DNA of 63,987 nt, filler included, from an uncultured bacterium (GTDB taxonomy: Bacteria > CAYJRR01): assembly GCA_964372275.1 (NCBI GenBank). It is 3 parts of 3 records of this genome, joined end to end, with 100 filler letters (N's around TTAATTAATTAA, not from the genome) between each part and the next. Parts side by side here need not be neighbours in the genome. Positions count along the whole stretch, not along the records: positions 55,688 to 63,987 come from CAYJRR010000166.1; 2 more parts are not named here. The stretch is one strand, 5' to 3'. This document shows, in pieces, positions 6,143-63,987 of the stretch. Under the pieces are notes generated by a model. The model worked only from the letters and a program-made list of their open reading frames with translations, made no database searches and was not told the origin of the DNA. The position numbers were made by a program, and so were the translations under genes. Every line of letters starts with the position of its first letter. The stretch's first letter is position 1.

Positions 6143-6158
6143 AGCAATCGGCGTGCCC
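6143..6158 (-). promoter_or_regulatory. Putative sigma-54 (-24/-12) promoter for the phosphatase gene
   Basis: Minus strand GGGCACGCCGATTGCT has GG-N10-GC spacing, ~45 nt upstream of the ATG at 6097. Confidence 0.6.
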
Positions 6159-6246
6159 CTCCCCGTGAGCCTGCAAAACCCCGGAACGCGCCGGTCTCTT
6201 CCGGAAAAAACGCGGCCCGGACCGGCCGGCGCTCGCGTCGCTCCGG

Positions 6247-11856: not shown

Positions 11857-11859
11857 CGG

Positions 11860-13101
11860 ATGCACGGCCACCGGATCATCGTCTGGCTGGCGCTGACCGA
11901 CTTCTTCTGCTGCCTCGGTCTGCTGATGCTCAGCCTCTACGGCCAGGTCCGAAGCGCGCTCGGCGTCGGGGTCGAGGCGGCGCAGATCGTCGAGCGCATC
12001 CACGAGCGCCTGCGCGACCACCCGGCGTGGAAGGACCGGATCGACTTCAACTCCGCCAGCTACTCGTTGCGCGTACCGGAGGCGGCGCTGTTCGACTTCA
12101 ACAGCCGTGACCTGCGCCGGCCCACCGACCTTCAGCCGCTGGCCGAGGCGATCCGCGCCGAGGGGATCCGTTTCCGCGAGTTCACGCTGATCGTCACCGG
12201 GCACACCGACGACTACGGGTCCCGGCCCTACAACCTGACGCTCTCGAGGGACCGGGCGGAGACGGTCGCGATCGCGTTGCATCGCTACGGCCTCGATCCG
12301 GCCGAGTTCAGCATCGCCACGCGCGGGGTGGGGCCGAGCTACCCGGAGGTCGACAACTGCCTGCCGGCGTCGACCTTCGAGAAGCGGTTCGCCTGCCTGG
12401 AGAGGGGGCTGCCGCTCCGGCCGAAGCCGGAGTTGGAGCGGAATCGTCGCATCGAGTTGACGGTCGGGATCTTCTCGGAGGCGCTGGCGCGGTTGCGGGC
12501 GTTGAGCTCGTTGCCGACGGTGGGGGCCGGGGCGGGCGACGCCGGGGCCGGGGGCGGGGCCGCGACGGAGGCCGGATCCGGGTCCGCACCCGTTGCCGTT
12601 GCCGTTGCCGTTGCCGTGGCCGTATCCGAGACCGAACCCGTATCCGTACCGGTAGCCGAACCGAATGCCGATCGGATCCGATCCGACCCGAACGGATCCG
12701 ATCCACCGGTCGTACCGAAGCCGCCGCGCGTGGCGAAGGTCGATACCGCGGCGCTCCTGTCGAAAGGGGAGGCGCTCTTCGCGCAGGGGAAGATCGTCGA
12801 GGCGGTCGAAGCGTTTTCCGCCGCGGCGTTCGCAGCGCCGGACGACGCCATAGCCCATGCCCGTCTCGGCGCGGCCTACGCCGAAGCCGGAGAGAACGAA
12901 CTGGCGGAGTCGAGCCTCGCCACCGCCGTCGGGCTCGACCCGCGCCACGCAGACAGCCGGTACCTCCTCGGCCGGCTCCTCGAAAAGCGGGGCGAGAAGA
13001 GCGCCGCCGCCGAGTCCTACCGCGTCTTTCTCGAGGTCGAGCCGACCGGCGTGCGCGCCGACGACGCGCGCCGCCGCCTCGACGCGCTCGCCGCGCCGTA
13101 G
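11860..13101 (+). CDS. ZorB/MotB-like OmpA-domain protein fused to C-terminal TPRs
   Basis: N-terminal TM WLALTDFF with conserved Asp; GHTDDYG..YNLTLSRDRAETV and NRRIEL peptidoglycan-binding motifs; low-complexity linker; TPR helices (AHARLGAAY, SRYLLGRLL). Confidence 0.8.
   Translation: MHGHRIIVWLALTDFFCCLGLLMLSLYGQVRSALGVGVEAAQIVERIHERLRDHPAWKDRIDFNSASYSLRVPEAALFDFNSRDLRRPTDLQPLAEAIRAEGIRFREFTLIVTGHTDDYGSRPYNLTLSRDRAETVAIALHRYGLDPAEFSIATRGVGPSYPEVDNCLPASTFEKRFACLERGLPLRPKPELERNRRIELTVGIFSEALARLRALSSLPTVGAGAGDAGAGGGAATEAGSGSAPVAVAVAVAVAVSETEPVSVPVAEPNADRIRSDPNGSDPPVVPKPPRVAKVDTAALLSKGEALFAQGKIVEAVEAFSAAAFAAPDDAIAHARLGAAYAEAGENELAESSLATAVGLDPRHADSRYLLGRLLEKRGEKSAAAESYRVFLEVEPTGVRADDARRRLDALAAP
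12589..12705. repeat. Degenerate hexamer (GCCGTT-like) and pentamer (GATCC/GATCG) tandem repeats inside the ZorB-like linker
   Basis: (GCCGTT)n followed by GATCGGATCCGATCCGACCCGAACGGATCCGATCC. Confidence 0.75.
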
Positions 13102-28132: not shown

Positions 28133-28232
28133 NNNNNNNNNNNNNNNNNNNNNNNNNNNNNNNNNNNNNNNNNNNNTTAATTAATTAANNNNNNNNNNNN
28201 NNNNNNNNNNNNNNNNNNNNNNNNNNNNNNNN
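28133..28232. other. Artificial contig-joining linker (N-run with TTAATTAATTAA)
   Basis: Exactly 100 nt with a central all-frame stop motif. Confidence 0.97.
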
Positions 28233-31312: not shown

Positions 31313-33616
31313 CTACGGAATCCCGCCGACCGCGGTCACGAACCAGGGTCCGGCACCCGTCGCCACGGCCGTCCCGATCGAGTCCAGTCCACCACTGACC
31401 GCATCGATGGAGAAGAGGGAAAGGGTGCTGGCGTTCAAGTTCGCGACGTAGGCGAAACGGCCCGTCGGATCGATCGCGACCGAGGCGGCACCGTCCCCCG
31501 CCGTTTCGGTGTCGACCTGCGTGGGCGCTCCGGAAAACGGGTCGATCGAGAGGATCGTCACCCGGTCGAGGTCGTAGCTGGCGACGTAGACGAACCGGCC
31601 TCCGGGGTCGACGGCCAGGCCCAGGTTCCGCTGTCCGACCGCGAGGGTGTTCCCCCGGGTCAGCGCCCCGGTCGCCGCGTCGATCGCGTAGTAGGAAACG
31701 CTGTTGCCGAAATCGTTCGCGACGTAGGCGAAGCGGCCGGACGGGTCGAGCGCGATCTGGTGCGGATTGACGCCCGACCCCACGGTGGAGATCGGCGAGA
31801 GCGCACCCGTCTCCGGATGGACGGAGTAGGCCGAGACGCTGTTCGAACCGTAGTTGGTGACGTAGGCGAACTTCCCGCTCGGGTGGACGGCCGTTCCGCA
31901 GGGGGACGATCCGGTCGCCACCGCCGTCCCGGGCGAGAGCTGGCCGGTGACGCGGTCGATCGCGTACGGCTGGACGGACGCGCCGCCGGTGTTCGGACTG
32001 AAGAGGAATCGTCCGGCCGGATCGAACGACACGAAACGCGGATTCGCCCCGGCGGCGGCGGTCGATTGCGGCGTGAGGATCCCCGAGACGCGGTCGACGG
32101 CGTAGACGGAGAGATTGGCGGAACTGTAGTTCGACGCGTAGGCGAATCGCCCGGTCGGATCGACCTGTACCGAGATCGGGTTCGAGCCGGTGGCGAAGGA
32201 GGTCACGGCCGTGAGCGCTCCGGTCGTCGCGTTCACCGCGAAGAGCGTCGCAGAATTGGAGTTGAAATTGGCGGAGTAGACGAACTTGGGCCCGATCCCC
32301 TTGAGCTCCTCCCCGCGGCCGAACGCCGTCGCGGAGGGGCCGAAGACGCCGAGGAGGTCCCGAGTCGGCGTCAGGGCACCCGCGGACGGATCGACGGCGA
32401 AGATCGACACGCGATCGTCCTCGGAGACGGGGACGTACGCCAGACGGCCGGAGGCGTCGAACGTGATGCCGGTCGGACCGGAGCCGGTGTCGATCGTTCC
32501 CGCGGCGGTCAGGCCTCCGTCGTCCGGATCGATCTGGAAGACCGAGAGATTGTCCGACCCGCCGTTCACGACGTAGGCGAATCGACCCGCGGGATCGATC
32601 GTCACGAAGATCGGCGCGGCGCCGGCGGCGACGGTGCCCCGGCGGTGGAGTCGGCCGGTCGACGGGTCGATGGCGTACGCGGTCACGTCGTTGGAGCGTT
32701 GATTCGCGACCAGCGCGAAGCGGCCCGACCGGTCGACGGCGACCGACCGGGGGCCCGAGCCGGCGGTGACGACGATCCCCGCGTCGAGCTCGCCGCTCTC
32801 GGGATCGACCGAGAACGTCGAGACGTCCTCCGAGTCGTCGTTGGTGACGTAGGCGAATCGGCCGTCCGGGGTGAAGGCGATCGACGTCGGCGCGCTGCCG
32901 GTGGCGGCGCTCCCGGCGGGAGTCAGCAGACCGGTGTCGGCGTCGACGGCGAGAACGGTGACCGTGTCGCCGCCGCGGTTCACGACGTAGGCGAAGCGGC
33001 CCGACGGATGGAGGACGAGGTGCGCCGGTCCGAGGCCGGCATTCGCCGGCAGGCCCGGGTCGAGCCGGCCGGTCTCCGCGTCGATTCCGTACACCGAGAC
33101 GTCGTTCGACAGCGCATTCGCCACGTAGACGAACCGACCCGCGGAGTCGACGGCCATCGAGGCCGGGCCGGCCCCGGTCGGCGCGCGGTCGGCGATGCGG
33201 ACGGCGCCGTCGGCGGGGGGGACGAGATGGGAGGTGATCGTCCCGATCTCGGCATTGACCACGAAGGCGAAGACCGACGGCTTCACGACCTCCAGAACCG
33301 CGTTCCCCGTCACCCCTTCGAAACGGGCGCCGATCGCCGCCGTCCCCCTTGCGAGCAGGGTCGCCGATCCGTCGGTTCCGACGGTCGCGATCAGCGGATC
33401 GGACGAGGTCCATTCGGCGGCGGCGGTCACGTCGACCTCGGTACCGTCGGCAAAGACCGCGATGGCCACGAACGACGGCGTTTCGCCGAGCAGGGCGATC
33501 GCGGGGGACGGCGTCACCCGGATCGACTGCACGCGGTCGAACCGTGCCTGGGTGGAGCAGCCGAGGGTCAGCGCGACGACCGCGCCGCGGCGGAGCGCTC
33601 GCCCAGGGCGCGGCAC
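31313..33616 (-). CDS. Lipoprotein with Big_2 Ig domain and two lactonase-type (Pgl/YncE-like) beta-propellers
   Basis: Lipobox LTLGC; WTSSDP.IATV; about 14 repeats of DP.GRFAYVAN...VSVY.ID..TG.L. Confidence 0.85.
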   Translation of the reverse strand: MPRPGRALRRGAVVALTLGCSTQARFDRVQSIRVTPSPAIALLGETPSFVAIAVFADGTEVDVTAAAEWTSSDPLIATVGTDGSATLLARGTAAIGARFEGVTGNAVLEVVKPSVFAFVVNAEIGTITSHLVPPADGAVRIADRAPTGAGPASMAVDSAGRFVYVANALSNDVSVYGIDAETGRLDPGLPANAGLGPAHLVLHPSGRFAYVVNRGGDTVTVLAVDADTGLLTPAGSAATGSAPTSIAFTPDGRFAYVTNDDSEDVSTFSVDPESGELDAGIVVTAGSGPRSVAVDRSGRFALVANQRSNDVTAYAIDPSTGRLHRRGTVAAGAAPIFVTIDPAGRFAYVVNGGSDNLSVFQIDPDDGGLTAAGTIDTGSGPTGITFDASGRLAYVPVSEDDRVSIFAVDPSAGALTPTRDLLGVFGPSATAFGRGEELKGIGPKFVYSANFNSNSATLFAVNATTGALTAVTSFATGSNPISVQVDPTGRFAYASNYSSANLSVYAVDRVSGILTPQSTAAAGANPRFVSFDPAGRFLFSPNTGGASVQPYAIDRVTGQLSPGTAVATGSSPCGTAVHPSGKFAYVTNYGSNSVSAYSVHPETGALSPISTVGSGVNPHQIALDPSGRFAYVANDFGNSVSYYAIDAATGALTRGNTLAVGQRNLGLAVDPGGRFVYVASYDLDRVTILSIDPFSGAPTQVDTETAGDGAASVAIDPTGRFAYVANLNASTLSLFSIDAVSGGLDSIGTAVATGAGPWFVTAVGGIP

Positions 33617-33617
33617 G

Positions 33618-35966
33618 TCAGGGCGCTCCGTTCAGGAGGACGATCCCCCAGGGACCGTCCCCGGAGGCGAATCCGCCGCTCGACGACAGCTCGCCTTCCT
33701 CCGGGTCGATCTGGAAGAGCGAGATGCTGTCCACCCCCCAGTTCGCGGCGTAGACGAAGCGGCTCGTGGGATCGACCGCGACGGAGATCGTGACGTCGCC
33801 GGCGGTGGTCGGGGCCTTGGCCGTCGGTACGCCGGTCGCCGGGTCGATCGAGTAGACCCAGACGTTGTCGGAGAGGTAGTTGGCGACGTAGGCGAAACGC
33901 GAGCCCGGGTCGAAGCCGATCGCGATCGGATACGTTCCGGCGGGAACGGCCGCACCCATCGACGTCAGGCCGCCCGTCGCCAGATTGACGGTGTAGCCGG
34001 AGATGCTGTTCCCACCGGCGTTGGCGGCGTAGAGGAAACGTCCGGACGGTTCGACGGCGACGTAGTGCGGATTGGCGCCGGTGGCCACGGTCGCCGGGTT
34101 CGCGGCGGTCAGCGCCCCGGTGGCGCGGTTCAGGTTGAAGACGCTCAGCGTGTTGGAGCAGTAGTTCGCCACGTAGGCGAACTTTCCGTTGGGGTGAACG
34201 GCGACCGAGACCGGCCACCGCTGCACCGCGACGGCCGTTCCGGCGGTCAACGCGCCGCTCGTCGGGTCGACCGAATAGACCGAAACGGTGCCGTTGGCCG
34301 CGGTTCCGCAATTGGGCGGACTGTTCGGCGTCATGTTCGGAGCGTAGACGAACCGTCCCGACGGATCGCCGGTCATGAGGCGTGGCTGGACACCGGCGGC
34401 GACCGCCGTGCCGGCCGTCAGCGCGCCGCTCGACGCGTCGATCCGAAAGACACCGACGCTGTTCGCCGACGTGTTCGCGGTGTAGAGAAAGCGCCCGGTC
34501 GGATCGACGAAGGCGGAGTTCGGATTCGCGCCGGTGGGGGTCGTATCCAGGACCGACAGCGTCCCGTTGGTGGCGTTGACGGCGAAACGTCCGAGATTGC
34601 TCACGTTGGAGTTGACGGTGTACGCGACGCGCGTGCGGAAGCGCTTCGCCGAGGGGCCGCTCGCCAGACCGAAGTCGAGCGGCGCGTAGAGCGCGAGGGT
34701 CGTGGCGACGGCGGTGAGCGACCCGGAATCGGGATCGACGGTGTAGGTCTGGACGCTCTCGGCCGCGTCCGACGTGACGAAGACGGTCGTTCCCGTCGCG
34801 TCGACGGCGATCGCCGCCGGTCCGTCAGGCGCCGGCGCCGAGCCGACCGCCGTCAGCAGCCCCGACGCGCCGTCCACGCGGAAGACCGAGACGACGTCCG
34901 TGCCGTGGTTCGCGACGAAGAGGTACCGGCCGTTGGGCTCGAGGGCGGCGGCGAACGGGGCGGTCCCGGTCACGACCGTCGCGATCGCCGTGAGCGAACC
35001 GTCGTCGTCGTCGATGGCGTAGACGGTCAGGTCGTTCGAGTCGCGGTTGGCCACGTAGGCGAACCGGCCGGTCGGATCGATCGCGATCGAGCGGGGGCCG
35101 TCCCCCGCCTGGAACGTCGTGCCGCCGGTCAGGGTCCCCAGCGCGTCGACGGCGTACACCGAGACGTTGTCGGAGGCTTCGTTGACGACGAAGGCGAACG
35201 ATCCGGTCGGGTCGAGGGCCATGGCGGCGGGTCCGTCGCCGGCGCCGACCGTCGCAAGCGTTGTCAGGGTCCCGTTGCTGCCGGCGATGGCGTAGACGGT
35301 GACGTTGTCGGAGCCGTTGTTGGCGGCGTAGAGGTGCGTCCCTTCCGGATGGATCGCCAGCGCGAACGGGTTGGTGCCCGAGCCGACGGCCGTCCCCGCC
35401 GTTGGCTTGCCGGTCGCCAGATCGATCGAATAGACGGAGACGTTGTTCGAGAGCGAGTTCGCGGCATAGACGTAGCGGCCGGCCGGATCGACGGCGATCG
35501 ACCGCGGGCCGGAGCCGGCGGCGACGAAGCCGCGGTAGTGCATGCGGTTGGTAGCGCTGTCGAGCAGGTACCAGGAGAGGGTGTTGTTGCTCGAGTTCGC
35601 CGCGTATCCGAAGACCGACGGGCGGATCGCCTGGATGTCGGTCGTCCCCGACACGCCCGAGAGGCTCGCGCTCACGGTGCACTGTCCAGCCGCGAAGACG
35701 ACCGCGGTGCCGTCGGTACCGATCGTGGCGATCGCCGGTTCGGACGAGGACCAGACGACCGAATCGGAGACGTCGATCGACGTGCCGTCCGAATAGCGCC
35801 CGATGGCCCGGAAGCGTTTGGACCCGCCGATGGCCACCTTGGGATCGGACGGTTCGATCTCGATCGAGCGGATCCTGTCGAACGAGACGCTCGTCGAACA
35901 GGCGACGGCCAGGGCCACGACCAAAAGGGCCGCGACGAGGGGGCGTGGGAGTCCCCGAAGGAGCAC
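33618..35966 (-). CDS. Paralogous lipoprotein with Big_2 domain and two lactonase-type beta-propellers (start approximate)
   Basis: Lipobox LAVAC; same architecture and blade repeats as the adjacent gene. Confidence 0.85.
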   Translation of the reverse strand: MLLRGLPRPLVAALLVVALAVACSTSVSFDRIRSIEIEPSDPKVAIGGSKRFRAIGRYSDGTSIDVSDSVVWSSSEPAIATIGTDGTAVVFAAGQCTVSASLSGVSGTTDIQAIRPSVFGYAANSSNNTLSWYLLDSATNRMHYRGFVAAGSGPRSIAVDPAGRYVYAANSLSNNVSVYSIDLATGKPTAGTAVGSGTNPFALAIHPEGTHLYAANNGSDNVTVYAIAGSNGTLTTLATVGAGDGPAAMALDPTGSFAFVVNEASDNVSVYAVDALGTLTGGTTFQAGDGPRSIAIDPTGRFAYVANRDSNDLTVYAIDDDDGSLTAIATVVTGTAPFAAALEPNGRYLFVANHGTDVVSVFRVDGASGLLTAVGSAPAPDGPAAIAVDATGTTVFVTSDAAESVQTYTVDPDSGSLTAVATTLALYAPLDFGLASGPSAKRFRTRVAYTVNSNVSNLGRFAVNATNGTLSVLDTTPTGANPNSAFVDPTGRFLYTANTSANSVGVFRIDASSGALTAGTAVAAGVQPRLMTGDPSGRFVYAPNMTPNSPPNCGTAANGTVSVYSVDPTSGALTAGTAVAVQRWPVSVAVHPNGKFAYVANYCSNTLSVFNLNRATGALTAANPATVATGANPHYVAVEPSGRFLYAANAGGNSISGYTVNLATGGLTSMGAAVPAGTYPIAIGFDPGSRFAYVANYLSDNVWVYSIDPATGVPTAKAPTTAGDVTISVAVDPTSRFVYAANWGVDSISLFQIDPEEGELSSSGGFASGDGPWGIVLLNGAP

Positions 35967-36130
35967 GAAGCGCGGAACCTCTCGGAGCGCCGTCTTCACC
36001 CAACCTGTAAGTGTACGCCTCGGCGCTGAAAATAAGAATTCGCCGAGGTGGCCGCTCCGGTGCCGGAGTTCGGTGCGCACGCGATTCCCGCCCCTTGCGC
36101 CGGGCCGCCGGCGACGATTCGTTGCCGCCG

Positions 36131-38554
36131 ATGCGACGGCGATCACAGACGCCACTCCTTCCGGCGGCGGTCGCCTGCCTGGCCGGGGCGCTGGTCGGCC
36201 GTGCGGGGGTCGAGGCCCCGCCGGTGGCGGCGGCGGCGATCGGCGCTGCCGCCGGGTTGGCCGCCTGGCGCGGTTCGGCCCGGTTGGCCGGGCGAGCGGC
36301 CGTCTTGGGGCTCGCCGTCGTCGCCCTGGTCCGAGCGGGGCCGGCCGGCGGTGTCGCGGGCCGCGAGCCGTCGAGGCCTCCGTCGGCGCAACCGCTCGTT
36401 GCGTTCGAAGGCTGCCTCCGCGGGCGTGGCGACGGCGGGCGCGGGAGGATCGTCGAGGTCCGGCCGGTCGACGGGGGCCCGGTCGCTCGCCTCCGGCTTC
36501 GTCACGCCGGGTTTCGGGAGTACCGGGGGGGATCCCCGGGAGGCCCGGAACGGGCGATGATCGGCGACCGGATCCGGGTCGACGGGCGCCTGCGGGCCGT
36601 GGCACCGCCGCAGAACCCCGGCGAGCGCGATCGGGCGCGTGCCGACCGGGAGGCCGGGGTCGACGGCGAGCTCGTGGCGGCGGGGCCGCCGAGGATCGTG
36701 GGGCGGTGCGGCGGTCTCGACGGCCTGCTCGCGCGCGGCCGAACGCAATTCCGGCGGCTGGTCGACCGGACCTTGCCGCCGCGCGAGGCGGGTCTCGCGG
36801 CGGCGCTGGTCACCGGCGAGGTCGACGGCGTCGACGCCGGCGATCTCGACGCGCTCCGCGCCACCGGCACGGTCCACGTCTTGTCGATCTCCGGGCTGCA
36901 CCTGGCGTGGGTGGCCGCGGCGGCCTTCGGCGCGTTTCGGCGGCTTTCGCTGCGCCTGTTCCCTCGCGTCGCCGAGACGCGGGACCTGCGTCTTCCCGCG
37001 GCCGCCGCGGCGCTCGCCGCCGCGACCGCCTACGCCGCCTTCGCGGGGATGGGGATCGCCACCTCCCGTGCGCTGCTGGTCACCGCGTCGGCCGTGGCGG
37101 CGATGCACGTCGGCGGCGCCCACGGCGGATGGAACGCCTGGGCGCTCGGGTTGGCGGTGTTGACGCTCGCCGAGCCCTCGTCGATCGAGCGACCGGCCTT
37201 CGCCTTGAGTTTCCTCGCGACCGGCGGACTGCTGTCGGTGGCGGGCGGGCGGCGCGGACGGGAGTCTCCGGTGAAGGACGGCGCGACGCTCGTCCGCGCG
37301 TGGCGGCGGATGCCGGCCGCGGTGGAGCGCGGCCTGCGTGCGACCTTCGCGGCGGCGGTGGCGACGCTTCCGGCCACCGGCGCCTGGTTCGGCCGGTGGC
37401 CCGTCGTCGGTCTCGTCGCCAACGCCGCGGCGATCCCGCTGTTCGGGGCGGGGAGCCTCCTGCCGCTCCTGGCGGCCGCCCTGGCGCAACCGTTGTGCGA
37501 GCCGGTGGCGCGGGGGCTCGTCCTGTCCGCGTATCCCGCGCTGGCGGCCGGGCGTTTCGCGGTCGACGCGGGATCGCGTCTTCCGTACGCGTCGATCGAA
37601 CGCCCGCTCTCCGTCGGTCAGGCCATCGCGCTGGGGACGGCGGTGGCGGCGTGGCTTCTCCTGCGAGGAGGTACGCGGCGGGTGGCGGTCGCGGCCGCGA
37701 TCCTTGCGACGGTCGCGCAGGTCCGGTCGGTCGATCGCCCGCCTCGCCGCACCACCGCCGCCTTCCTCTCGGTCGGACAGGGGGACGCCGCCGTGGTGCG
37801 TTTCGCGACCGGCGAGGTGCTCGTCGTCGACACCGGCCCCCCGGGCGCGGGCGCGCGCGTCCTGGTGCCCTACCTGCGGTCGGCCGGCGTGCGCCGGATC
37901 GACGCCGTAGCGATCAGCCACGCGCATCCCGATCACACCGGCGGGTTGGAGGCGCTGGCCCGCGCCTTTCCGGTGGGCCAGCTCTGGATCGGGGGTCCGG
38001 TCGGGGCGGACCGGGCGCTCCTGGCCGGCGTGGCGCAGCTCTCGCGCCGGGGCACGCGCGCGCAGGTCGTCGGTCGCGGGGCGCCGGCGGTGCGCATCGG
38101 AGCGGCGACGATCGAGTTCGTCGGTGGCGACGCGACGCGGGGTCGGGAGGAGGCCGGCGATCGGAGCCGGCGCAACGATCGATCGCTCGTTCTGCGGGTG
38201 TCGGAGCCCGGCCTGTCGGTGTTGTTCGCGGGCGATCTCGAGCGGGCCGGCGAGGCGATCCTGGTGGAGTCGAGCCGACGCCTGCGCGCCGACGTGGTGA
38301 AGATCCCGCACCACGGATCGGGGACCGGAAGCTCCGCCGAGCTCGTCGCCCGCACCCGCCCTCGACTCGCCGTCGCATCGCTGGGGGCCGGCAATCGGTA
38401 CGGCTTTCCCGACGCCGACGTGGTGGCGCGTTGGGAGCGTGCGAAGGCCGTGGTGCTGCGCACCGATCTCGTCGGGGCGATCGAGGTCCGCGGTTGCGAA
38501 GGCGAGGTCGGCGTGCCTACGATCTGCGTCCGAACGCCGGCCGGCGACGATTGA
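36131..38554 (+). CDS. comEC: DNA uptake competence protein ComEC/Rec2
   Basis: HVLSISGLH, FALSF, VGQGDA, VDTG, SHAHPDHTGG, KIPHHGS, NRYGFP. Confidence 0.92.
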   Translation: MRRRSQTPLLPAAVACLAGALVGRAGVEAPPVAAAAIGAAAGLAAWRGSARLAGRAAVLGLAVVALVRAGPAGGVAGREPSRPPSAQPLVAFEGCLRGRGDGGRGRIVEVRPVDGGPVARLRLRHAGFREYRGGSPGGPERAMIGDRIRVDGRLRAVAPPQNPGERDRARADREAGVDGELVAAGPPRIVGRCGGLDGLLARGRTQFRRLVDRTLPPREAGLAAALVTGEVDGVDAGDLDALRATGTVHVLSISGLHLAWVAAAAFGAFRRLSLRLFPRVAETRDLRLPAAAAALAAATAYAAFAGMGIATSRALLVTASAVAAMHVGGAHGGWNAWALGLAVLTLAEPSSIERPAFALSFLATGGLLSVAGGRRGRESPVKDGATLVRAWRRMPAAVERGLRATFAAAVATLPATGAWFGRWPVVGLVANAAAIPLFGAGSLLPLLAAALAQPLCEPVARGLVLSAYPALAAGRFAVDAGSRLPYASIERPLSVGQAIALGTAVAAWLLLRGGTRRVAVAAAILATVAQVRSVDRPPRRTTAAFLSVGQGDAAVVRFATGEVLVVDTGPPGAGARVLVPYLRSAGVRRIDAVAISHAHPDHTGGLEALARAFPVGQLWIGGPVGADRALLAGVAQLSRRGTRAQVVGRGAPAVRIGAATIEFVGGDATRGREEAGDRSRRNDRSLVLRVSEPGLSVLFAGDLERAGEAILVESSRRLRADVVKIPHHGSGTGSSAELVARTRPRLAVASLGAGNRYGFPDADVVARWERAKAVVLRTDLVGAIEVRGCEGEVGVPTICVRTPAGDD

Positions 38555-55587: not shown

Positions 55588-55687
55588 NNNNNNNNNNNNN
55601 NNNNNNNNNNNNNNNNNNNNNNNNNNNNNNNTTAATTAATTAANNNNNNNNNNNNNNNNNNNNNNNNNNNNNNNNNNNNNNNNNNNN
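55588..55687. other. Artificial contig-joining linker
   Basis: 100-nt N-run with TTAATTAATTAA. Confidence 0.97.
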
Positions 55688-55688
55688 A

Positions 55689-56123
55689 GCCGATAGCGGT
55701 GCCGCCTACGTGTTCGTGCGGACCGCAGGCCTCTGGAGCCAGCAGGCCTACCTCAAGGCCTCAAACACCGAAACGGGCGATAACTTTGCGGAGAGCGCCT
55801 CCGTTTCGGGCGACACGCTCGTGGTCGGGGCCTACGTCGAGGATTCGAGCGCCACGGGAGTGAATGGCAACCAGGTAGACAATGGCGCTCTAAGCAGTGG
55901 CGCAGCCTACCTGTTCGTGCGGAGCGCGGGCGTTTGGAGCCAGCAGGCCTACCTCAAGGCCTCGAACTCCGAAACGGGCGATTTCTTTGGGGGACGAGTC
56001 TCCGTCTCGGGCGATACGATACTGGTCGTGGGGGAAGAGGAGGATTCGAGCGCTACGGGAGTCAACGGGAACCAATCCGACAATTCGGCTCTGGAGAGTG
56101 GCGCTGTCTACCTGTTCCACTGA
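55689..56123 (+). CDS. FG-GAP/integrin-like repeat protein, C-terminal fragment
   Basis: Two repeats of SGAAY.F.R..G.WSQQAYLKASN...GD.F...VSGDT..VG...EDS.ATGVNGNQ. Confidence 0.85.
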   Translation, partial: ADSGAAYVFVRTAGLWSQQAYLKASNTETGDNFAESASVSGDTLVVGAYVEDSSATGVNGNQVDNGALSSGAAYLFVRSAGVWSQQAYLKASNSETGDFFGGRVSVSGDTILVVGEEEDSSATGVNGNQSDNSALESGAVYLFH

Positions 56124-56534: not shown

Positions 56535-57989
56535 ATGCCCCGCCGCCTCTACATCGAAACGGTCGGTTGCCAGATGAACGTGCTCGACAGCGAGCTCGTC
56601 GTCGGGGGACTGAAGCGGCAGGGGTACGACCTGGCGGGGGACCCGGAGGAGGCCGACCTCCTGCTCTACAACACCTGCAGCATCCGCGAGCACGCGGAGG
56701 AGAAGGTCTACAGCAGTCTGGGTACCCTTCGCGCGCTCAAGGAGCGGCGCCCCGAGGTGGTGATCGGGGTGCTGGGATGCATGGCGCAGAAGGACCAGGA
56801 GGGGATCTTCCGCCGCGCGCCGCACGTCGACCTCTTGTGCGGGCCGGGAAGTCTCGACGAGCTTCCGGAGATGGTCGAGGAGGTGCGGCGGACGCGCATC
56901 CCACGGGCGAGTCTCTCGCTCGGGCGGCGCGACGCACCGCGACGGGAGGTGGTCCAGAGCTTCGCCAGCTTCGACCCGATGCGCGATCCGGCGATGCGAC
57001 CGACCCCCTTCCAGGCGTTCGTCCGGACCCAGCTCGGCTGCGACAAGTTCTGCACCTACTGCATCGTCCCCAGCGTGCGTGGGCCGGAACAGGGGCGCGA
57101 CCCACTGGCGATCGTCGAGGAGTGCCGGGTGCTCGCCGACCAGGGGGTGGTCGAGGTCACGCTGATCGGGCAGACGGTCAACAGCTACCGCTTCGACCAT
57201 GGCGACGGGCGGCGCACCCGCCTGTCCGACTTGCTGGCGGCGGTGCAGGAGATCGCCGGGATCGAGCGGATCCGCTTCGTCACCAACTTCCCCAACGACG
57301 TCACCGACGACCTGCTCGAGGCGATGCGCGACCTGCCCAAGGTCTGCCGTCATCTGCACGTCCCCGCGCAGTCCGGGTGCGACGAGGTGCTGGCCCGGAT
57401 GAAGCGCCACTATTCGGTCGCCGCCTACCGCGAGAGGCTCGCCCGGGCTCGGGAGACGGTTCCCGGAATCTCGATCAGCGGCGACCTGATCGTCGGCTTC
57501 TGCGGAGAGGGGGAGGCCTCGTTCGAACGGACCCGTGCCCTGGTGCGGGAGGAAAAGTTCAAGAACAACTTCATCTATCAATACAGTCCTCGGCCCGGAA
57601 CCAAGGCTTTTGACCTGCCAGATGACGTCCCCGACGAGACGAAAAGACGTCGCAACAACCAGCTCCTCGCCGACCAGAACGAGGCGAGCCGCGCCGACCA
57701 TCGCCGGTTCGTGGGGTCGCGGGTCGAGGTCCTGGTCGAAGGCCAAAGCCCCCTCGCGCGTCGGGGACGGCCGGAGAGCGCGAACCAGCTCACGGGACGG
57801 ACGCCGACCGACCACATCGTCGTCTTCGACGGTCCGCCGTCTCTGGCCGGCCGTATCGTTCCGATCCTCGTGGAGGACGCCAGCGTGCTGACCCTGTTCG
57901 GCCGGCGCGCCGAGGCGGTCGACGCCGAATCGCCTCCCCCGGCGCGCCCGCCCCACGCGGGACGACCGCTCCCCGTGATTGCGGGGTAG
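56535..57989 (+). CDS. miaB: tRNA-2-methylthio-N6-dimethylallyladenosine synthase MiaB
   Basis: GCQMN.LDSE, NTCSIREHAE, GCMAQ, GCDKFCTYC, DLIVGF.GE, YSPRPGT, TRAM domain. Confidence 0.96.
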   Translation: MPRRLYIETVGCQMNVLDSELVVGGLKRQGYDLAGDPEEADLLLYNTCSIREHAEEKVYSSLGTLRALKERRPEVVIGVLGCMAQKDQEGIFRRAPHVDLLCGPGSLDELPEMVEEVRRTRIPRASLSLGRRDAPRREVVQSFASFDPMRDPAMRPTPFQAFVRTQLGCDKFCTYCIVPSVRGPEQGRDPLAIVEECRVLADQGVVEVTLIGQTVNSYRFDHGDGRRTRLSDLLAAVQEIAGIERIRFVTNFPNDVTDDLLEAMRDLPKVCRHLHVPAQSGCDEVLARMKRHYSVAAYRERLARARETVPGISISGDLIVGFCGEGEASFERTRALVREEKFKNNFIYQYSPRPGTKAFDLPDDVPDETKRRRNNQLLADQNEASRADHRRFVGSRVEVLVEGQSPLARRGRPESANQLTGRTPTDHIVVFDGPPSLAGRIVPILVEDASVLTLFGRRAEAVDAESPPPARPPHAGRPLPVIAG

Positions 57990-58018: not shown

Positions 58019-58738
58019 CTACTCCGGATCCGGTTCCGGTTCGGGAATGACGAAGCTCTCCAGCTCCTCCGTCTGCCCCCCCATCTCCTTCACCTTCCCC
58101 ACCCCCCTCGCGAACCAGTAGGTCTTCTCCGACCGCTCCTCCCCGGTCACCGACCGCGTTCGCGTCACCCGCAGGCAGTGGAACAGACCGGCCGGTACCG
58201 TCACCGGTTCGTCGACGGCCTCGACCACCCAGCGGTCGCTCTTCTCCACCGACTCGGTCGTCCCCTCGGGAAGGTCGATCCGGGTCTCGACGTACTCCTC
58301 GATCCAGGTGGCGCCGGGCAGGAGGTGGCCAGGGGACTCGTCGAGGCGCAGCCGCCGCGGTTCGTACAGGCTCTCCGATTCGGTGCGGCCGGTCTCGTCC
58401 TGCTCACGCTCGAAATGACGCACGATGCTCGATCCGAGGTCCTCCTGCCAGCTGCGCGTCGCGCCGCCGGCCCGGGTGGTGAGCACCGGGTAGGCGACGA
58501 CGCCGGCCTTCGCCCCCTGCATCGCCTCCGCCGGTTCGACGACGGAGCGCTTGGTGGTGAGCACGCCGGTCGTTCCGTTCACGACGCGGTAGGTCCACGA
58601 GGCGCCGGCCACCAGCGGCAGGTAGCGCAGGTCCGGAGGCGTGGGTGTCGGCGTGGGATGGCGCTCGGTGCCGCATGCCGCGAGGAGCGCGGCGGTACCG
58701 AGGACGACGAAGACGGCTCTGCGGGCGTGTTTCGGCAT
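58019..58738 (-). CDS. Lipoprotein of unknown function (beta-rich, VTVPAG motif)
   Basis: Lipobox LLAAC; YLPL..GASWTY; VTVPAG.F.CLRV; YWFARGVGKVKE. Confidence 0.8.
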   Translation of the reverse strand: MPKHARRAVFVVLGTAALLAACGTERHPTPTPTPPDLRYLPLVAGASWTYRVVNGTTGVLTTKRSVVEPAEAMQGAKAGVVAYPVLTTRAGGATRSWQEDLGSSIVRHFEREQDETGRTESESLYEPRRLRLDESPGHLLPGATWIEEYVETRIDLPEGTTESVEKSDRWVVEAVDEPVTVPAGLFHCLRVTRTRSVTGEERSEKTYWFARGVGKVKEMGGQTEELESFVIPEPEPDPE

Positions 58739-58760
58739 CGTTCCTCCCGTTGTTCCCACG

Positions 58761-59429
58761 TTAGGGATCGATCAGCACCACACCGCGCACGCCGGGGATC
58801 CCGGTTCGTTCGAGGCGGCGAAGGACGGTCGCCGCGTCGAGCCCGGGCGGACCGTCGAGCTCCAGCAGAAGTCGCCCGGGGCCGGCGATGTCGTGCGGCG
58901 CGGCGAGGACGCGGACGTTGTCGAAGACGGGCCGGATCGGTTCGAGGGCCAGGCCCGGCCGCTCGAGATCGATGCCGACGCGCACGCGCTGCAGCGGTCG
59001 CGATTCCGACAGCTCCAGCAGCATCAACATCGATCCGACGAACAGCACGGCGAGGCCGGCGACCGGAAGGAGCCCGATTCCGACCGCCATGCCGATGCCG
59101 ATCATCACGAACAGGACGGCGGCGTCGCGGGGGTCCTTGATCCCGGAACGGAAGCGGATGAAGGCCCCCAGTCCGACCAGCCCGAACGCGCGGGCCACGC
59201 TGTCGCCGATGATCATCACCATCAGGCTGCCGGCGACGGCGATCAGGACCTGCGCCTGGGCGGTGTCGGCGGGAACGGCCGCGACGGAGGCCCGCAGTCT
59301 CCTCCAGGGACGGAAGGCGACGGCGGCGGCGAGAAGGGCGGTGAGCGCCAGCCTCGAAGCGATCAGCGCGAGCGGCAGATGCGCAATCGGGACGGTCGAA
59401 GGGACCGCCTCGGAGAGCACGGGGCTCAC
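58761..59429 (-). CDS. DUF4956-family membrane protein
   Basis: IIGDSVARAFGLVGLGAFIRFRSGIKDPRDAAVLF..IGIGMAVG. Confidence 0.88.
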   Translation of the reverse strand: MSPVLSEAVPSTVPIAHLPLALIASRLALTALLAAAVAFRPWRRLRASVAAVPADTAQAQVLIAVAGSLMVMIIGDSVARAFGLVGLGAFIRFRSGIKDPRDAAVLFVMIGIGMAVGIGLLPVAGLAVLFVGSMLMLLELSESRPLQRVRVGIDLERPGLALEPIRPVFDNVRVLAAPHDIAGPGRLLLELDGPPGLDAATVLRRLERTGIPGVRGVVLIDP

Positions 59430-61129
59430 GTCCGGGCCTCCGGCGCGGCCGCCGACGTCGGTCGCGAGAGCACGAGGGCGGCGACGTGGCGGAGGAGCGA
59501 GAGGTTTTGCGGATACCTCGACAGCTGTCGCGCGACGATCGCCTGGCCTTTGGATCCGCCGGCGAGGACCCCGAGGCTCTTGACGACGGTAGACGGCCAC
59601 CGGTCGAGCCCCTCCATGCGGAGCGACCAGGCCTGCGAACCGTCCATGCCGGCAATGGAGTCGATCGCCTCCTTCGCCTGCGCGACGCACCGGCGGCGGA
59701 GCCTCCACGCGCGGGGATCGTCGATGCCGTCGATGCCGCGGAGCACCAGACGCGGTGCGCCGTCGGCGAATCGCTCCCGCAACGCCCAGGCGCGGTCCCC
59801 GGAGAGTCCGGCGATCGAGCGAAGGACCTCCGCCGGCGCGATGGGCAAGGCGGCTTCGCGGACGCGCCACGCGCGCGGGTCGTCGATCGCGCGTACCGAT
59901 TCGCAGAGCGCCGGTGCGATCCATGGCTCCGTCACGCGCGGCGACCCGTCCTCCTCGAGGTAGCGACGACGGTGCTCCCATGCCCGCTCGCCGGTCAGGC
60001 GCGCGAGCGAGCGCAGGGCGGCGTCGGGCGCGATCCCGGCGAGCCGCTCGCGGAGCGCCCAGCTCCGTTCGTCGTCGCGGCCGGCCAAGGAGCCGAGTAC
60101 CTCCTCCGGCGCCCGCTCGACCAGCGAATCGCGCAGCTGCCATGCCGGCTCGGTCGCCCCGGATTCGCCGCTCAAGGACCGCGCGACCTGCCGGGGCACG
60201 ACCGGGGCGAGCGCCTCTCGGATGCGCCGGGAAAGCGGGTCGTCCAGACCGGCCGTCCCGAACGCCGACACCGCGGGGGCCCGCAGGGCGAGCGTCCGCC
60301 GGCGCGCATCGACCCCGGGTCCCGCCAATCCGGAAAGGAAGTAGGCCGCGACGTCGGGCTCGCGCTCCGAACGGCGGTCGATCCAGTCGAGGAAGGCGGC
60401 GAAGGCGTCGTCCGTTCCGACCGGCCGCACGATCCGCAGCCGGGTGGTGCGAAGTTGGGAGGCCAGGCGTAGCCCCAGTGGGACGCCGGCATGGAGGGCG
60501 TTGCGGACGACGTCGACCATGCGCGCGACGAGGAGGTCGAGGTCGGTGTCGTCGTTGTCGACGACGGCCCATCGGGCGGGATCGGCCGCCGCGAGCGCGA
60601 GGTAGCCTTCGCGGAGACGATGCTGCAGCCCGGCGCCGGCGAGTCCCTTGCGGGATCCCCCTCGGGCGGAGGGCTCCTTGATCTTCTGCGCGCGGCGGCG
60701 GGCGCGCGCCAGGTGCGGGTCGACGTCGACCAGGATCGCCAGGTCCGGTTCGAGCCCACGCGAGACCGATCGAAGCAGCGCCCGGACGCGCGATTCGGGA
60801 AGGCCCCGGCCGTGGATCGCAAGCACTTCGGGGGTGTAGAGGAACCGGTCGGCGATCACCACGTGCGCCTGGGAGAGCGCCGGCCGGGTGATCTCCTCCA
60901 ACGACTGCGCTTCGCGGGCGGCGTAGAGGAGGAGCTCCGCCTCGGGGTGGAGCTCCAGGTGGAGCGGATCCCGGGCGAAGTCACGCATCGCCTGGGCCGT
61001 GCGCGAGGAGAAGCGGCCATCCTCCCGCACGTGCACCACGCGATATCCGTCGTCGCGCAGCTTCTTGGCCACGCGCGAGGAGAGTGTCGTCTTGCCGCAG
61101 CCGTCGATCCCTTCGAAGGCGATGAACAT
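59426..61129 (-). CDS. Thymidylate-kinase-fold protein fused to C-terminal HEAT-like helical repeats
   Basis: FIAFEGIDGCGKTT, ELLLYAA, IADRF, PDLAILVD; then repeats of SLAG.D..RAW.LR. Confidence 0.85.
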   Translation of the reverse strand: MFIAFEGIDGCGKTTLSSRVAKKLRDDGYRVVHVREDGRFSSRTAQAMRDFARDPLHLELHPEAELLLYAAREAQSLEEITRPALSQAHVVIADRFLYTPEVLAIHGRGLPESRVRALLRSVSRGLEPDLAILVDVDPHLARARRRAQKIKEPSARGGSRKGLAGAGLQHRLREGYLALAAADPARWAVVDNDDTDLDLLVARMVDVVRNALHAGVPLGLRLASQLRTTRLRIVRPVGTDDAFAAFLDWIDRRSEREPDVAAYFLSGLAGPGVDARRRTLALRAPAVSAFGTAGLDDPLSRRIREALAPVVPRQVARSLSGESGATEPAWQLRDSLVERAPEEVLGSLAGRDDERSWALRERLAGIAPDAALRSLARLTGERAWEHRRRYLEEDGSPRVTEPWIAPALCESVRAIDDPRAWRVREAALPIAPAEVLRSIAGLSGDRAWALRERFADGAPRLVLRGIDGIDDPRAWRLRRRCVAQAKEAIDSIAGMDGSQAWSLRMEGLDRWPSTVVKSLGVLAGGSKGQAIVARQLSRYPQNLSLLRHVAALVLSRPTSAAAPEART

Positions 61130-61151
61130 CGATCGGTCGTCCTCGCATCGC

Positions 61152-62171
61152 TTAAAAGTCGGCGCCGAGCTGGAGGCGCCACGCCCGTTCCGGTAGGCCC
61201 TCGCCGCCGTCCGGACCGTGCCTCCCGAAGCCGGTCCAGCGGTGTTCGACCTGCGTGCGCCAGCGGCGGCCGAGCCCGACGCCGGCGCCGACCGTCGCCT
61301 CCCGGACGACGTCGTCCGTGCGTTCGATGTCCGGATCGAGCGCCCCCGCCCGGAGGTACGGTTCGAGGTGGCGCGTCCCGCCGATGGGCAGCCGCCATCC
61401 GGCCAAGAGGCGCGCGGTGGCGAAGGTCGGGTCCCTCCGGTCGAGCGGGTCCTCGTCGAGCCACGACCGTCCGACCGCCGCGTCGGCCCAGAGCCGTGGA
61501 CCGAATTCGGGTTCCCTCGAAACGTCGACCGCGGCGGCGGGGTAGGGCCGGAATCGGCTTCCGGGGATCGGCTCGGCGCGTCGCGAGAGGCCGGTGGCCC
61601 CGAACGACAGACCCGCGATCCGCGCCTCGATGCGCACGGCGGCGCTCCCGCCGAACCCTTCCGATTCGCCGGCGGCGCGACGGTCGCCGTCGGCCGCGGG
61701 CGACTGCCAGACCGCGGCCTCGATCGACGGGCGGCCGGTAGACGATCCTCGCCACGCGAGCCGCATCCCGTGCTGTCGGCCGCCGATTTCGAAGCGTCGC
61801 GACAGCAGGTCCTGGATCGGACCGCGATCGATCGCCGGAAGGTCCCACGAGGAGCGTAGCCCGAGCCGGGTGAAGGGGGTCTTGAAGCGGCCGGCGCGCA
61901 GCGAGAGTCCGCCCTTCCCGCGGCCCCATTCGATCCACGCGTCCCGGACCGGCCGGTCGTCGGTCAGCTCGGCCGTGAGCCGCGCGCGCGTTCCGTCCCG
62001 TTCGAAGGTCGCCCCGAGCCGCGCGCGGGCGGTTTCGACGCGGCCGTTCCAGGCACCGCCGTCCTCCTCGAACGTCGACCGGAGCAGCAGCCGGCCATCG
62101 ACGGACAACGGGGCTCGCGCGGAGTCGTCGGCAACGGCGCCGAGCAGGAGGAGTGGAAGCCAGGCGATCAC
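61152..62171 (-). CDS. Porin, phosphate-selective porin O/P-like
   Basis: Short signal; ARARLG, RDAWIEW, LRAGRFKTPF; C-terminal LQLGADF. Confidence 0.75.
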   Translation of the reverse strand: MIAWLPLLLLGAVADDSARAPLSVDGRLLLRSTFEEDGGAWNGRVETARARLGATFERDGTRARLTAELTDDRPVRDAWIEWGRGKGGLSLRAGRFKTPFTRLGLRSSWDLPAIDRGPIQDLLSRRFEIGGRQHGMRLAWRGSSTGRPSIEAAVWQSPAADGDRRAAGESEGFGGSAAVRIEARIAGLSFGATGLSRRAEPIPGSRFRPYPAAAVDVSREPEFGPRLWADAAVGRSWLDEDPLDRRDPTFATARLLAGWRLPIGGTRHLEPYLRAGALDPDIERTDDVVREATVGAGVGLGRRWRTQVEHRWTGFGRHGPDGGEGLPERAWRLQLGADF

Positions 62172-62917
62172 GTTCCGCTCCCGTCCGCCCAGGCACTTTG
62201 CCCGGCGGCGCGCAACGCCGCCGACATCGCCATGCGGAACTTCGAGAATCCGACCGACTCGCGATGGCACTCCAGCAGCGGTTCGAGCCAGGGTGGCGGA
62301 CCGCCGGTCTGCTTGACCTCCAGCACCCGCAGCTCTTTGCGGTCGATCGGCTCGACCTCCGTCAAGGAGCTTCCGAGCGGCAGCGGCGGATAGAAGGCGA
62401 GCCGGTCGTCGACGGTGATCCGGATCCGTTCCTCGCCGTCGGCGAATGCGCGCCGCCGGTACCAGGTCGACACGCAGGGGAGCGGCCGCTCGACCCGGAG
62501 GCTCCGGATCAGGGCTGCACGCGCCTCGGCCGAGGCGGCGTCCGCGGGCTCGAGCGCGTCTTCGGCGACCTCCCGTCCCTGCAACAGGTCGAGAAGCGTC
62601 CGGCGATCGGCGCGCAGCCTCGTTTTCCGACGATGCCCCTGGGCCGTCTCCTTGAGCTCCAGGTAGGCCTGGGAGGATAGGTCGGGGCACTCGTCGCCGA
62701 GCGCGCTCGCGTATTCGCGGATTCGAAGTCGCCGGGCGAGACCCGTCGCGTCGGAGCGGAGGTAGTCGAGGGCGGGCGTGTCCAGGTAGGTGGTGCGGGT
62801 GAAGGAAACGGGGCGCCCCGGGTCGTGGACGACCGGACGCGTCCAGTGCGCGATTGCCGCGAGGAACGCGTCGGCGGCCGCCGGTTCGAGGAGGAACTTT
62901 CGCTCGCGCTCGTCCAT
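62168..62917 (-). CDS. VTC-domain (polyphosphate polymerase, CYTH-like) protein
   Basis: ERERKF, TYLDT, RRLRIREY, LELK, YRRRAF, RITVD, VLEVK, FSKF. Confidence 0.9.
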   Translation of the reverse strand: MDERERKFLLEPAAADAFLAAIAHWTRPVVHDPGRPVSFTRTTYLDTPALDYLRSDATGLARRLRIREYASALGDECPDLSSQAYLELKETAQGHRRKTRLRADRRTLLDLLQGREVAEDALEPADAASAEARAALIRSLRVERPLPCVSTWYRRRAFADGEERIRITVDDRLAFYPPLPLGSSLTEVEPIDRKELRVLEVKQTGGPPPWLEPLLECHRESVGFSKFRMAMSAALRAAGQSAWADGSGT

Positions 62918-62968
62918 GTCCGCCGGAACGATGGACGCCCGGCCGCCGGGATCAAGGGCGCGGCGTCA

Positions 62969-63987
62969 CTAGTACCGCGCGTCTTGGTAGGAGACGCGCT
63001 GCCGCAACCATTGGCGGACGTACGCCACCTCCTGATCCCAGGTGGTGAAGTCGGTGCGCCACCTCCAGCCGGCGTAGGTCCGGTAGGTCTCGCCCCACCG
63101 CCGCTCGTCACGGCGCGCGGAGGGCTCGATTTCCGACGCAATCCGATCGACGTCGGCGAGGACCGTCTCGAGCGCGAACGGGCCGTCGAGCGCTTCACGC
63201 ACGCGCGCGTGCAGACGATCCCGGAGCGCCGGCACGGCGAGGAGGCGCGCGAAGAGACGGTTCTTGTGGGCGAAGGTCTGTGCGTCGTCGGGGCGCTGTC
63301 GCGAGGTGTTCCAGGCCTGGCCGAAGCTGCCGTTGAAGTCCCACGGGACGAAGCGCCATTGGTCGCCCGGGGCGCGCGCGTGGAAGCTGTTCTTTCCCGC
63401 CGAATCGTGGGCGAGGAGGAAGGTCACGAACACCCACCAATCCTCGTAGTCTGCGAGCCGCGTTCGCTCTCCGATCTCCGCCGCGAAGACGGCGTCGTCC
63501 GACGTGGCGACGAACCGGACCAGCTCGTCGATCGACGCGAACGCGCCCGGCTCCCCCTCGGGTGGCACCCCTTCCTTCTTCTGCAGTCCCTGGTGCGGGC
63601 TCGTCTTCGGCTCCCCCTGATAGACGAGGTCGAAGTTCGCCTGATGATGGGTTGCCTTGAACAGCTCGAGACCCTCCGCGAGGCCGGACTGCTCCAGGTG
63701 AAAGCGGTCGACGTGGTCGCTCACGGTGTAAAGGCCCCAGTAGCGACCGTCGAGGTAGACGACCGCGTGGTAGGCGCCGATCGGTAGGTGCAGCGGGTCG
63801 AGGCGGTTCCAGAGCGTGTAGGCGAGACGGTTCCGCAGGTACGAGTTGTCGTCGAAGGTGGTGGTGAGCGCGACCTTCCTCCGACCGACGAATCCGAGAT
63901 CGGGGTCCCCGAACTCGTCCTCCTTTGGGAACTTCAGCGTGTAGCTGTTCTTCGGGTAGTAGAGCGACGAGGCGCCGCGGTACTTGA
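62969..63987 (-). CDS. CotH kinase family protein (5' end outside the window)
   Basis: KYRGASS..YPKNSYTLKF, DNSYLRNRLAY, KNSFH, FVPWDFNGSFG. Confidence 0.88.
   Translation of the reverse strand, partial: KYRGASSLYYPKNSYTLKFPKEDEFGDPDLGFVGRRKVALTTTFDDNSYLRNRLAYTLWNRLDPLHLPIGAYHAVVYLDGRYWGLYTVSDHVDRFHLEQSGLAEGLELFKATHHQANFDLVYQGEPKTSPHQGLQKKEGVPPEGEPGAFASIDELVRFVATSDDAVFAAEIGERTRLADYEDWWVFVTFLLAHDSAGKNSFHARAPGDQWRFVPWDFNGSFGQAWNTSRQRPDDAQTFAHKNRLFARLLAVPALRDRLHARVREALDGPFALETVLADVDRIASEIEPSARRDERRWGETYRTYAGWRWRTDFTTWDQEVAYVRQWLRQRVSYQDARY

Follow-up and report, generated by a model that had tools for sequence, protein, structure and literature searches.

Which process is served by an operon that sets a relative of the yeast polyphosphate polymerase Vtc4 among an atypical kinase, a porin, a nucleotide-kinase fold, a small membrane protein and a lipoprotein? 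We addressed this question for six consecutive open reading frames (ORFs) on the minus strand at 58019–63987 of a 63,987-nucleotide stretch of DNA, hereafter the window, from an uncultured bacterium (GTDB lineage Bacteria; CAYJRR01; assembly GCA_964372275.1). Comparison of related loci shows that the core of the system consists of the VTC protein and the DUF4956 membrane protein, that the clade represented here adds a thymidylate kinase (Tmk)-fold fusion protein and the lipoprotein, and that the CotH kinase and the porin are exchangeable. We tentatively propose that VTC and DUF4956 make and export polyphosphate (polyP), or a similar donor, for interchangeable envelope phosphotransferases.

The six tightly packed genes are a genuine operon. 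An earlier note on this DNA had described them as close-set genes on one strand, and ORF calls, gaps and codon-position GC agree with it. Along the operon (5′ to 3′), the intergenic gaps are 51, −4, 22, −4 and 22 nt; the CotH–VTC gap is corrected to 51 nt. The last gap, before the lipoprotein gene, shrinks from 22 to 1 nt with an alternative GTG start at 58759. GC content at third codon positions is 0.86–0.90 versus 0.45–0.60 at second positions, a coding-type pattern across the six ORFs. The CotH, VTC, O/P-porin and DUF4956 labels of the earlier note all lie above Pfam cut-offs. The features of the operon are as follows:

62969–63987, minus strand: CotH-family atypical kinase domain (PF08757), its 5′ end cut by the contig end.
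62168–62917, minus strand: stand-alone VTC (Vtc4-like triphosphate-tunnel) domain, 249 aa (PF09359).
61152–62171, minus strand: predicted outer-membrane β-barrel, O/P-porin-like, 339 aa (PF07396).
60488–61129, minus strand: thymidylate-kinase-fold domain, residues 1–214 of a 567-aa protein (PF02223, TIGR00041).
59426–60415, minus strand: helical solenoid of ~27-residue repeats, C-terminal part of the Tmk-fold protein (AlphaFold model).
58761–59429, minus strand: DUF4956 inner-membrane protein, 222 aa (PF16316).
58019–58738, minus strand: lipoprotein with a DUF3108-like all-β domain (PF21347, below cut-off).

A genome scan queried with the Tmk fusion returned 36 loci, three of them with a full-length fusion, and clade-level counts are small. 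Together with the window, these three loci, L001 and L002 from Polyangia metagenome-assembled genomes (MAGs) and L003 from a "Proteobacteria" MAG, give four fusion loci. VTC and DUF4956 occur in the same operon as the fusion in all four, the porin in two (the window and one other) and CotH in the window only. The lipoprotein is present in both scanned fusion loci where it is visible, its homologues following DUF4956 in L001 and L003. The 33 stand-alone Tmk loci contain none of the other five operon genes. With CotH in one and the porin in two of the four fusion loci, the co-occurrence check does not support the six genes as a conserved unit; conversely, the kinase fusion, regarded in the earlier note as an unusual addition, is a fixed core component of this clade's version, accompanied by VTC and DUF4956 in every fusion locus. 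L001 contains only VTC, Tmk fusion, DUF4956 and lipoprotein, between a recD-like gene and a gene on the opposite strand. Both Polyangia loci (L001, 1–786; L002, 2–3124) place the module downstream of recBCD-like helicase genes.

The same pairing extends beyond the clade. The plasmid set, in which some records are of chromosome size, yielded six VTC loci, from Bacillota and Actinomycetota. In each of them the gene immediately downstream of VTC encodes DUF4956, and an envelope enzyme or binding protein is found no more than three genes away (CotH in four, a Cthe_2159 lipoprotein in one, a PLD protein in one). VTC and DUF4956 are thus closely linked, in 6/6 plasmid-set and 4/4 fusion loci, and the slot beside the pair is often taken by exported phosphotransferases, as the earlier note's reading would have it. 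In L043, a cardiolipin-synthase-like PLD gene (10501–12054) directly follows VTC–DUF4956, in the usual slot of CotH. None of the 17 plasmid-set records carries a full-length Tmk fusion. As a proxy for linkage, we counted same-sized contigs common to two match tables, leaving out rows from the window itself and one row that lacked a size: 14 were shared between Tmk fusion and DUF4956, compared with 0.68 (maximum 3) for shifted sizes, and the proxy was weak for Tmk–VTC (7 versus a null maximum of 6) and VTC–DUF4956 (9 versus a maximum of 5).

The VTC protein matches PF09359 at E 3.5e-25. This was the only family at E ≤ 0.1 (residues 4–233), with no SPX domain in the 249 aa, and neither a signal nor a transmembrane (TM) segment was seen by eye. 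A single-sequence PDB search gave nothing significant, and profiles were needed: a profile of VTC relatives retrieved Vtc4 (3g3q) at E 2e-24 over positions 1–244, that is, over its full length. Significant PDB matches were restricted to Vtc4 and its paralogues Vtc2/3, and neither VTC profile matched a TTM hydrolase at E ≤ 10. Nine Vtc4 residues have been described as critical for polyP synthesis by cryo-EM (10.1101/2023.01.27.525886). All nine are retained in the window protein, where K200, R264, R266, K281, Y359, R361, E426, S457 and K458 of Vtc4 correspond to K7, R65, R67, K89, Y153, R155, E200, S225 and K226. Among 119 relatives (119 of the 120 matches listed, P0191 omitted) they vary little or not at all, and, allowing K/R exchange, they are kept in ten of ten loci from several phyla. 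The kinship to yeast Vtc4 drawn in the earlier note is thereby borne out as that of a full-length homolog with the catalytic set. At E ≤ 0.001, VTC relatives number 6667 representatives, which may include eukaryotic members; three phage-set records also match VTC.

Hydrolases of the TTM fold are reported to be set apart by four glutamates (E2, E4, E90 and E171 in AtTTM3) (PMC4641920). At the position of E171, the window protein has K202, equivalent to Vtc4 K428, and this residue is Lys in 119/119 relatives. The neighboring strand is likewise basic (K98/R100), with a presumed match to AtTTM3 E90.

The DUF4956 protein matches PF16316 at E 1.8e-7 (31.5 bits; cut-off 30.6) and the MgtC family PF02308 at E 6e-4 (20.5 bits), below its cut-off of 31.4. 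Its model (pLDDT 81.5) consists of four N-terminal helices followed by an ACT domain; the MgtC C-domain is among the fold matches of the latter (Z 6.7; root-mean-square deviation (rmsd) 3.9 over 79 residues). DUF4956 thus shares with the MgtC/SapB family four TM helices, a C-terminal ACT domain and a weak PF02308 match, but differs from it in scoring under the PF02308 cut-off, in its linkage to VTC and in its RFR-x-KD motif. This motif forms part of a conserved GxxxxxRFR(S/T)xxKD segment; R92, R94, K98, D99 and R101 are invariant, and the basic segment is kept across phyla. Fold searches with the model returned no VTC channel subunit, although the ACT domain filled the match lists. Nor was a Rosetta-stone fusion found, the length-limited homolog searches giving no long DUF4956 match among 491 proteins; a 471-aa candidate (P0377) was rejected because its N-terminus is not DUF4956. 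Two Bacteroidota loci (L037, 10685–13925; L048, 9959–12899) carry DUF4956 without VTC, beside HlyD-like and, in L037, TolC genes.

A further constant member in this clade is the Tmk-fold fusion, which belongs to a family of 1008 matches at E ≤ 0.001; residue counts below refer to the 120 of these that were listed. Its N-terminal domain matches PF02223 at E 6e-24 and TIGR00041 with 97.3 bits, above the cut-off of 83.25. An AlphaFold model of the two-domain protein (pLDDT 94.1, pTM 0.92) superposes in this part on Tmk 5x7j with Z 23.9 and rmsd 1.6 over 184 residues. The P-loop (G10-x-G12-K13-T14) and the D94-R95 motif occur in 120/120 relatives, and the phosphate-binding arginines are invariant. 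The base pocket differs. Thymine-based ligands are reported to contact R70, S97, Y100 and Q101 in S. aureus Tmk (PMC10610096). In the fusion family these positions are replaced by D/E (120/120), A/P (119/120), L/I/M (120/120) and A/G/S (120/120), whereas stand-alone Tmk controls have R in 22/33, S/T in 31/33, Y in 25/33 and Q in 16/33. The register of the pocket was taken from T. thermophilus Tmk alignments, and the S. aureus numbering was carried over through a motif that we take to mark the same positions. An acidic residue in place of the pocket Arg would suit an amino-bearing base, e.g., adenine or cytosine.

The fusion thus shares with thymidylate kinase (TIGR00041) the fold, the P-loop, the DR motif and the phosphate-binding arginines, but has a replaced thymine pocket, an extra basic lid (R142, R144, R145, K149 and S159-R160-K161) and ~320 residues of Arg/Trp repeats. 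The Tmk label of the earlier note accordingly stands for fold, motifs and family cut-off but probably not for function: with the thymine pocket lost, the protein is probably not a thymidylate kinase. Every name given by the source among the 120 matches listed is "dTMP kinase", which is probably a mis-annotation. Membership of the PPK2 family was rejected, as no PPK2 family of Pfam or NCBIfam matched at E ≤ 0.1 and the fold is nearer to Tmk than to PPK2 6aqe (Z 12.1, rmsd 3.8 over 181 residues). A reading as a defense system was also rejected, because the PADLOC matches VakA and PDC-M51B span only the generic Tmk domain.

The C-terminal domain consists of ~27-residue helical repeats with a consensus-like SLxGLDDxRAWxLRExL and one near-invariant Arg per repeat. 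Across the 120 sequences, nine repeat arginines are 95–100% conserved, with spacings of 27, 29, 27, 27, 37, 27, 27 and 26 residues; they may be structural or polyanion-binding. The best fold matches of the solenoid are the proteasome chain 8amz_N (Z 12.6, rmsd 5.9 over 306 residues) and PSMD2 (Z 11.9), both under the mark of ~13 for repeats, and the ESM Atlas gave no usable match for this domain. The HEAT label of the earlier note finds no backing in Pfam: no HEAT family matched any of the four C-terminal domains at E ≤ 10, and the tail is a 27-residue Arg/Trp repeat.

The exchangeable components flank this core. The CotH domain matches PF08757 at E 8.7e-57 and B. cereus CotH (5jd9) at E 3.8e-13, and D194, N199 and D216 of the partial protein align with D224, N229 and D247 of the 5jd9 chain. 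The spacing of the catalytic and metal residues equals that of D228 and D251 in B. subtilis CotH (23 residues), whose mutants are reported to be inactive (10.1101/469122). The porin, which starts at a GTG overlapping the VTC stop and ends in Phe, matches PF07396 only marginally (E 9.4e-5, 22.2 bits, cut-off 20.9) and only over 87 residues (59–145). It is 31% identical to the L003 porin over 295 aa, and no OprO/OprP sequence match was found for it in the PDB. The lipoprotein has a lipobox, LAAC, identified by eye, and an ATG preceded by GGAGG. It matches PF21347 (DUF3108_like) below cut-off (E 2.9e-5), and its top ESM Atlas match is a DUF3108 cluster (score 0.93, 191 shared features). In a Lactobacillus record of plasmid or prophage origin (L047, 6603–9173), phage tail genes are likewise followed by a gene with a CotH domain.

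In L003 the order is dikinase-like lipoprotein, porin, Tmk fusion, DUF4956, lipoprotein, VTC and Na/Pi cotransporter (E 4e-11). The first of these takes the place of CotH and combines PPDK_N (E 8e-23), a sub-threshold GWD phosphohistidine-like domain (E 0.0012) and a lipobox identified by eye; it possibly represents an exported dikinase family. Its gene (4608–6689, plus strand) has the glucan-water-dikinase domain order, phosphohistidine-like and then PPDK_N, and relatives occur on three Streptomyces plasmid records.

Parts of this arrangement are known. Genes for CotH, a polyphosphate polymerase (PPP) and DUF4956 are reported to adjoin Gram-positive pel genes (10.1101/768473). In S. intermedius, where the trio SIR_1594–1592 was deleted, SIR_1592 is described with a 4-TM + ACT architecture, and in strains lacking either the membrane protein or CotH aggregation fell by >50% in artificial sputum medium (PMC12345266). 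The pel-linked trio and the window share three families, a 4-TM + ACT membrane protein and a tight operon. The pel-linked trio is contiguous, whereas in the window VTC and DUF4956 are split by the porin and the Tmk fusion, a lipoprotein follows, and no pel gene was seen on the contig, which has miaB downstream and ends upstream. The S. intermedius study also states, in the part available, that the trio is not found outside pel loci (PMC12345266). It appears to occur outside them, contradicting this statement: no pel genes were annotated or recognized among the neighbors examined in the window, L038, L039, L041 and L042.

A VTC/CotH/HEAT/GT2 cluster has been reported in the NELoc-2 region of C. 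perfringens (PMC2879425). It has the order VTC, ~225-aa membrane protein, CotH, identical to that of L039, but the HEAT protein there genuinely belongs to Pfam HEAT_2 and partners a GT2 (as in L039), is unrelated to the window repeats, and the cluster lacks Tmk fusion and porin. With the yeast VTC complex (Vtc4/Vtc3/Vtc1; 3g3q, 8i6v), the window protein has in common the full-length tunnel domain, the 9/9 critical residues and a small dedicated membrane partner; it differs in having no SPX domain or fused TM segment, in a partner that is MgtC-like rather than Vtc1-like, and in acidic residues in place of T198 and R196. The earlier note knew of no experimental characterization of the arrangement. 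The trio is in fact in print and has been deleted in S. intermedius, but the statement stands for biochemistry: in the literature covered, subscription journals lying outside it, we found no work on the Tmk-fusion variant and no assay of a bacterial VTC protein.

The mechanism we favor would run as follows. Cytoplasmic VTC, using ATP as Vtc4 does, would build polyP or a short phosphoanhydride chain, as its catalytic residues suggest. The MgtC-like DUF4956 protein, whose gene is linked to that of VTC, would then, as an oligomer, take the product across the inner membrane. Interchangeable envelope enzymes, CotH here and the glucan-water-dikinase-like lipoprotein in L003, might transfer its phosphate to surface proteins or glycans. 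The Tmk-fold protein, with its re-tooled base pocket and arginine-ladder solenoid, would be the fixed fourth member in this clade; given the loss of the thymine pocket, it is most likely a nucleotide/polyP-binding regulator or a recycler of the by-products ADP and AMP, not a maker of dTDP. Lipoprotein and porin could carry or pass the product onward, which is the weakest step. If so, the system would be likened to yeast VTC in its working, without being a member of the yeast complex. The polyP-donor idea of the earlier note therefore survives as the best single explanation, carried by Vtc4 homology and VTC–DUF4956 linkage, and is put forward tentatively; its six-gene unit does not survive. We consider doubtful a broader version, in which a widespread PPK-independent VTC + DUF4956 machine threads polyP out as the donor for secreted kinases and dikinases, and the clade's Tmk fold (acidic pocket, basic lid, arginine-ladder solenoid) has been re-tooled, separately from PPK2, into a polyP-binding nucleotide kinase or an SPX-like switch.

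Several observations weigh against the proposal. B. subtilis CotH is reported to use ATP in vitro (10.1101/469122), and no use of polyP by CotH was found in the literature examined. CotH is dispensable among the fusion loci, and none of the four loci found with the window CotH has VTC or DUF4956 within 8 kb. Deletions of the DUF4956-like and CotH genes in S. intermedius are reported to shift Pel oppositely, and the available text reports no drop for the VTC-gene deletion (PMC12345266); these non-matching phenotypes therefore fit a simple linear pathway poorly. The yeast VTC channel is described as a pentamer of 3-TM subunits (PMC9911596), unlike the MgtC architecture of DUF4956, and because the latter has four TM helices and an ACT domain, a channel role would be an analogy, without demonstrated homology to the yeast channel. 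VTC accompanies DUF4956 in six of nine loci and is missing from three. Two of these three adjoin HlyD or TolC genes (HlyD-family in L048, TolC-family in L037), which suggests a second, tripartite-export use of DUF4956; this position is the slot of an inner-membrane exporter and was counted in favor of the proposal. Within the VTC protein, the Lys matching K458 is non-discriminating, since the hydrolase AtTTM3 carries it too (PMC4641920). Ten of ten bacterial VTC proteins aligned have Glu (E5) at the T198 position of Vtc4, which is acidic in 118/119 relatives, and position 3 (Vtc4 R196) is Glu/Asp in 106/119 of the clade and Arg in seven other VTC proteins examined. The acidic residues at these two positions restore half of the hydrolase acidic patch. 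Because basic K202 coexists with acidic positions 3 and 5, the protein is mixed, and polymerase activity is likely but predicted only.

These acidic positions lead to the main rival, in which the operon is a sensing or hydrolyzing module: the VTC fold would be a two-metal triphosphatase or nucleotide converter, DUF4956 an MgtC-like regulator and the Tmk fold a nucleotide sensor, with envelope enzymes tuned and no polymer exported. The ExExK-like N-terminus of the clade (E3, E5, K7) is consistent with it, as an acidic patch is reported to drive hydrolysis in TTM enzymes (PMC4641920), and so are the MgtC TM + ACT architecture of DUF4956 and S. intermedius deletions that are not phenocopies of each other. 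We nevertheless regard it as unlikely: the E171 equivalent is Lys throughout, with basic K98/R100 on the neighboring strand (presumed E90 match), no TTM hydrolase appeared at E ≤ 10 with either VTC profile, and the recurrent exported ATP-type enzymes and the porin are left unexplained.

Alternatively, polyP might be the exported end product, serving as a surface coat, a cation sink or a periplasmic phosphate store, with CotH, dikinase and glycan genes only loosely co-regulated. VTC–DUF4956 linkage is strict and CotH linkage loose, L001 does without any such enzyme in its four-gene set, and a 2026 preprint reports PPK1/PPK2-independent extracellular polyP in B. cereus, although, in the part available, with no VTC4 homolog there (PMC13484657). 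Against this improbable alternative, unrelated phosphotransferase folds (CotH and the GWD-like dikinase) in the same operon slot suggest a shared need for a donor. A reverse route, in which porin and Na/Pi cotransporter import (poly)phosphate, VTC degrades it and the Tmk fold passes phosphate to nucleoside mono- or diphosphates, is very unlikely: it could draw on the O/P-type porin in 2/4 fusion loci, the cotransporter in L003 and reports that MgtC promotes phosphate uptake, but VTC–DUF4956 is retained in the six plasmid-set loci, for the most part beside CotH and genes for glycan or envelope functions, their annotated or scanned neighbors include no recognized phosphate importer, and the porin match is marginal and its selectivity putative.

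The window consists of three contigs joined by N-runs with a short spacer at 28133–28232 and 55588–55687, and genes left of 55688 are therefore not neighbors of the operon. The operon contig measures 8300 nt, from about 55688 to about the window end, so that the CotH 5′ end, with any signal peptide or further domains, and upstream genes are out of view. A search for an Rfam family, a sigma-70 promoter and an intrinsic terminator found none of the three. A miaB tRNA methylthiotransferase gene (56535–57989, plus strand) is convergent with the operon and ends 29 nt from the lipoprotein stop. At the start of the contig, an FG-GAP repeat gene (55689–56123, plus strand) is represented by its 3′ end, with GC content below its surroundings. 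Another contig of the window encodes, at 31316–36605 on the minus strand, two tandem large proteins of many lactonase-type β-propeller repeats.

The CotH–VTC–DUF4956 trio beside pel genes was already known; what is new here is a core subunit with a re-tooled Tmk fold, the replacement of CotH by a dikinase-like protein and the apparent occurrence of the trio outside pel loci. How bacteria produce extracellular polyP, and which phosphoryl donor serves secreted kinases such as non-spore CotH, are open questions in the field. Should VTC–DUF4956 polymerize and export polyP, bacteria would have a third route to this polymer, and the pair would be a candidate relative of the eukaryotic VTC complex. 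The pair is small and easily assayed, VTC relatives are widespread, and with the Tmk-fold fusion a new nucleotide-kinase specificity can be tested directly. The locus may be a bacterial means of providing high-energy phosphate extracellularly.

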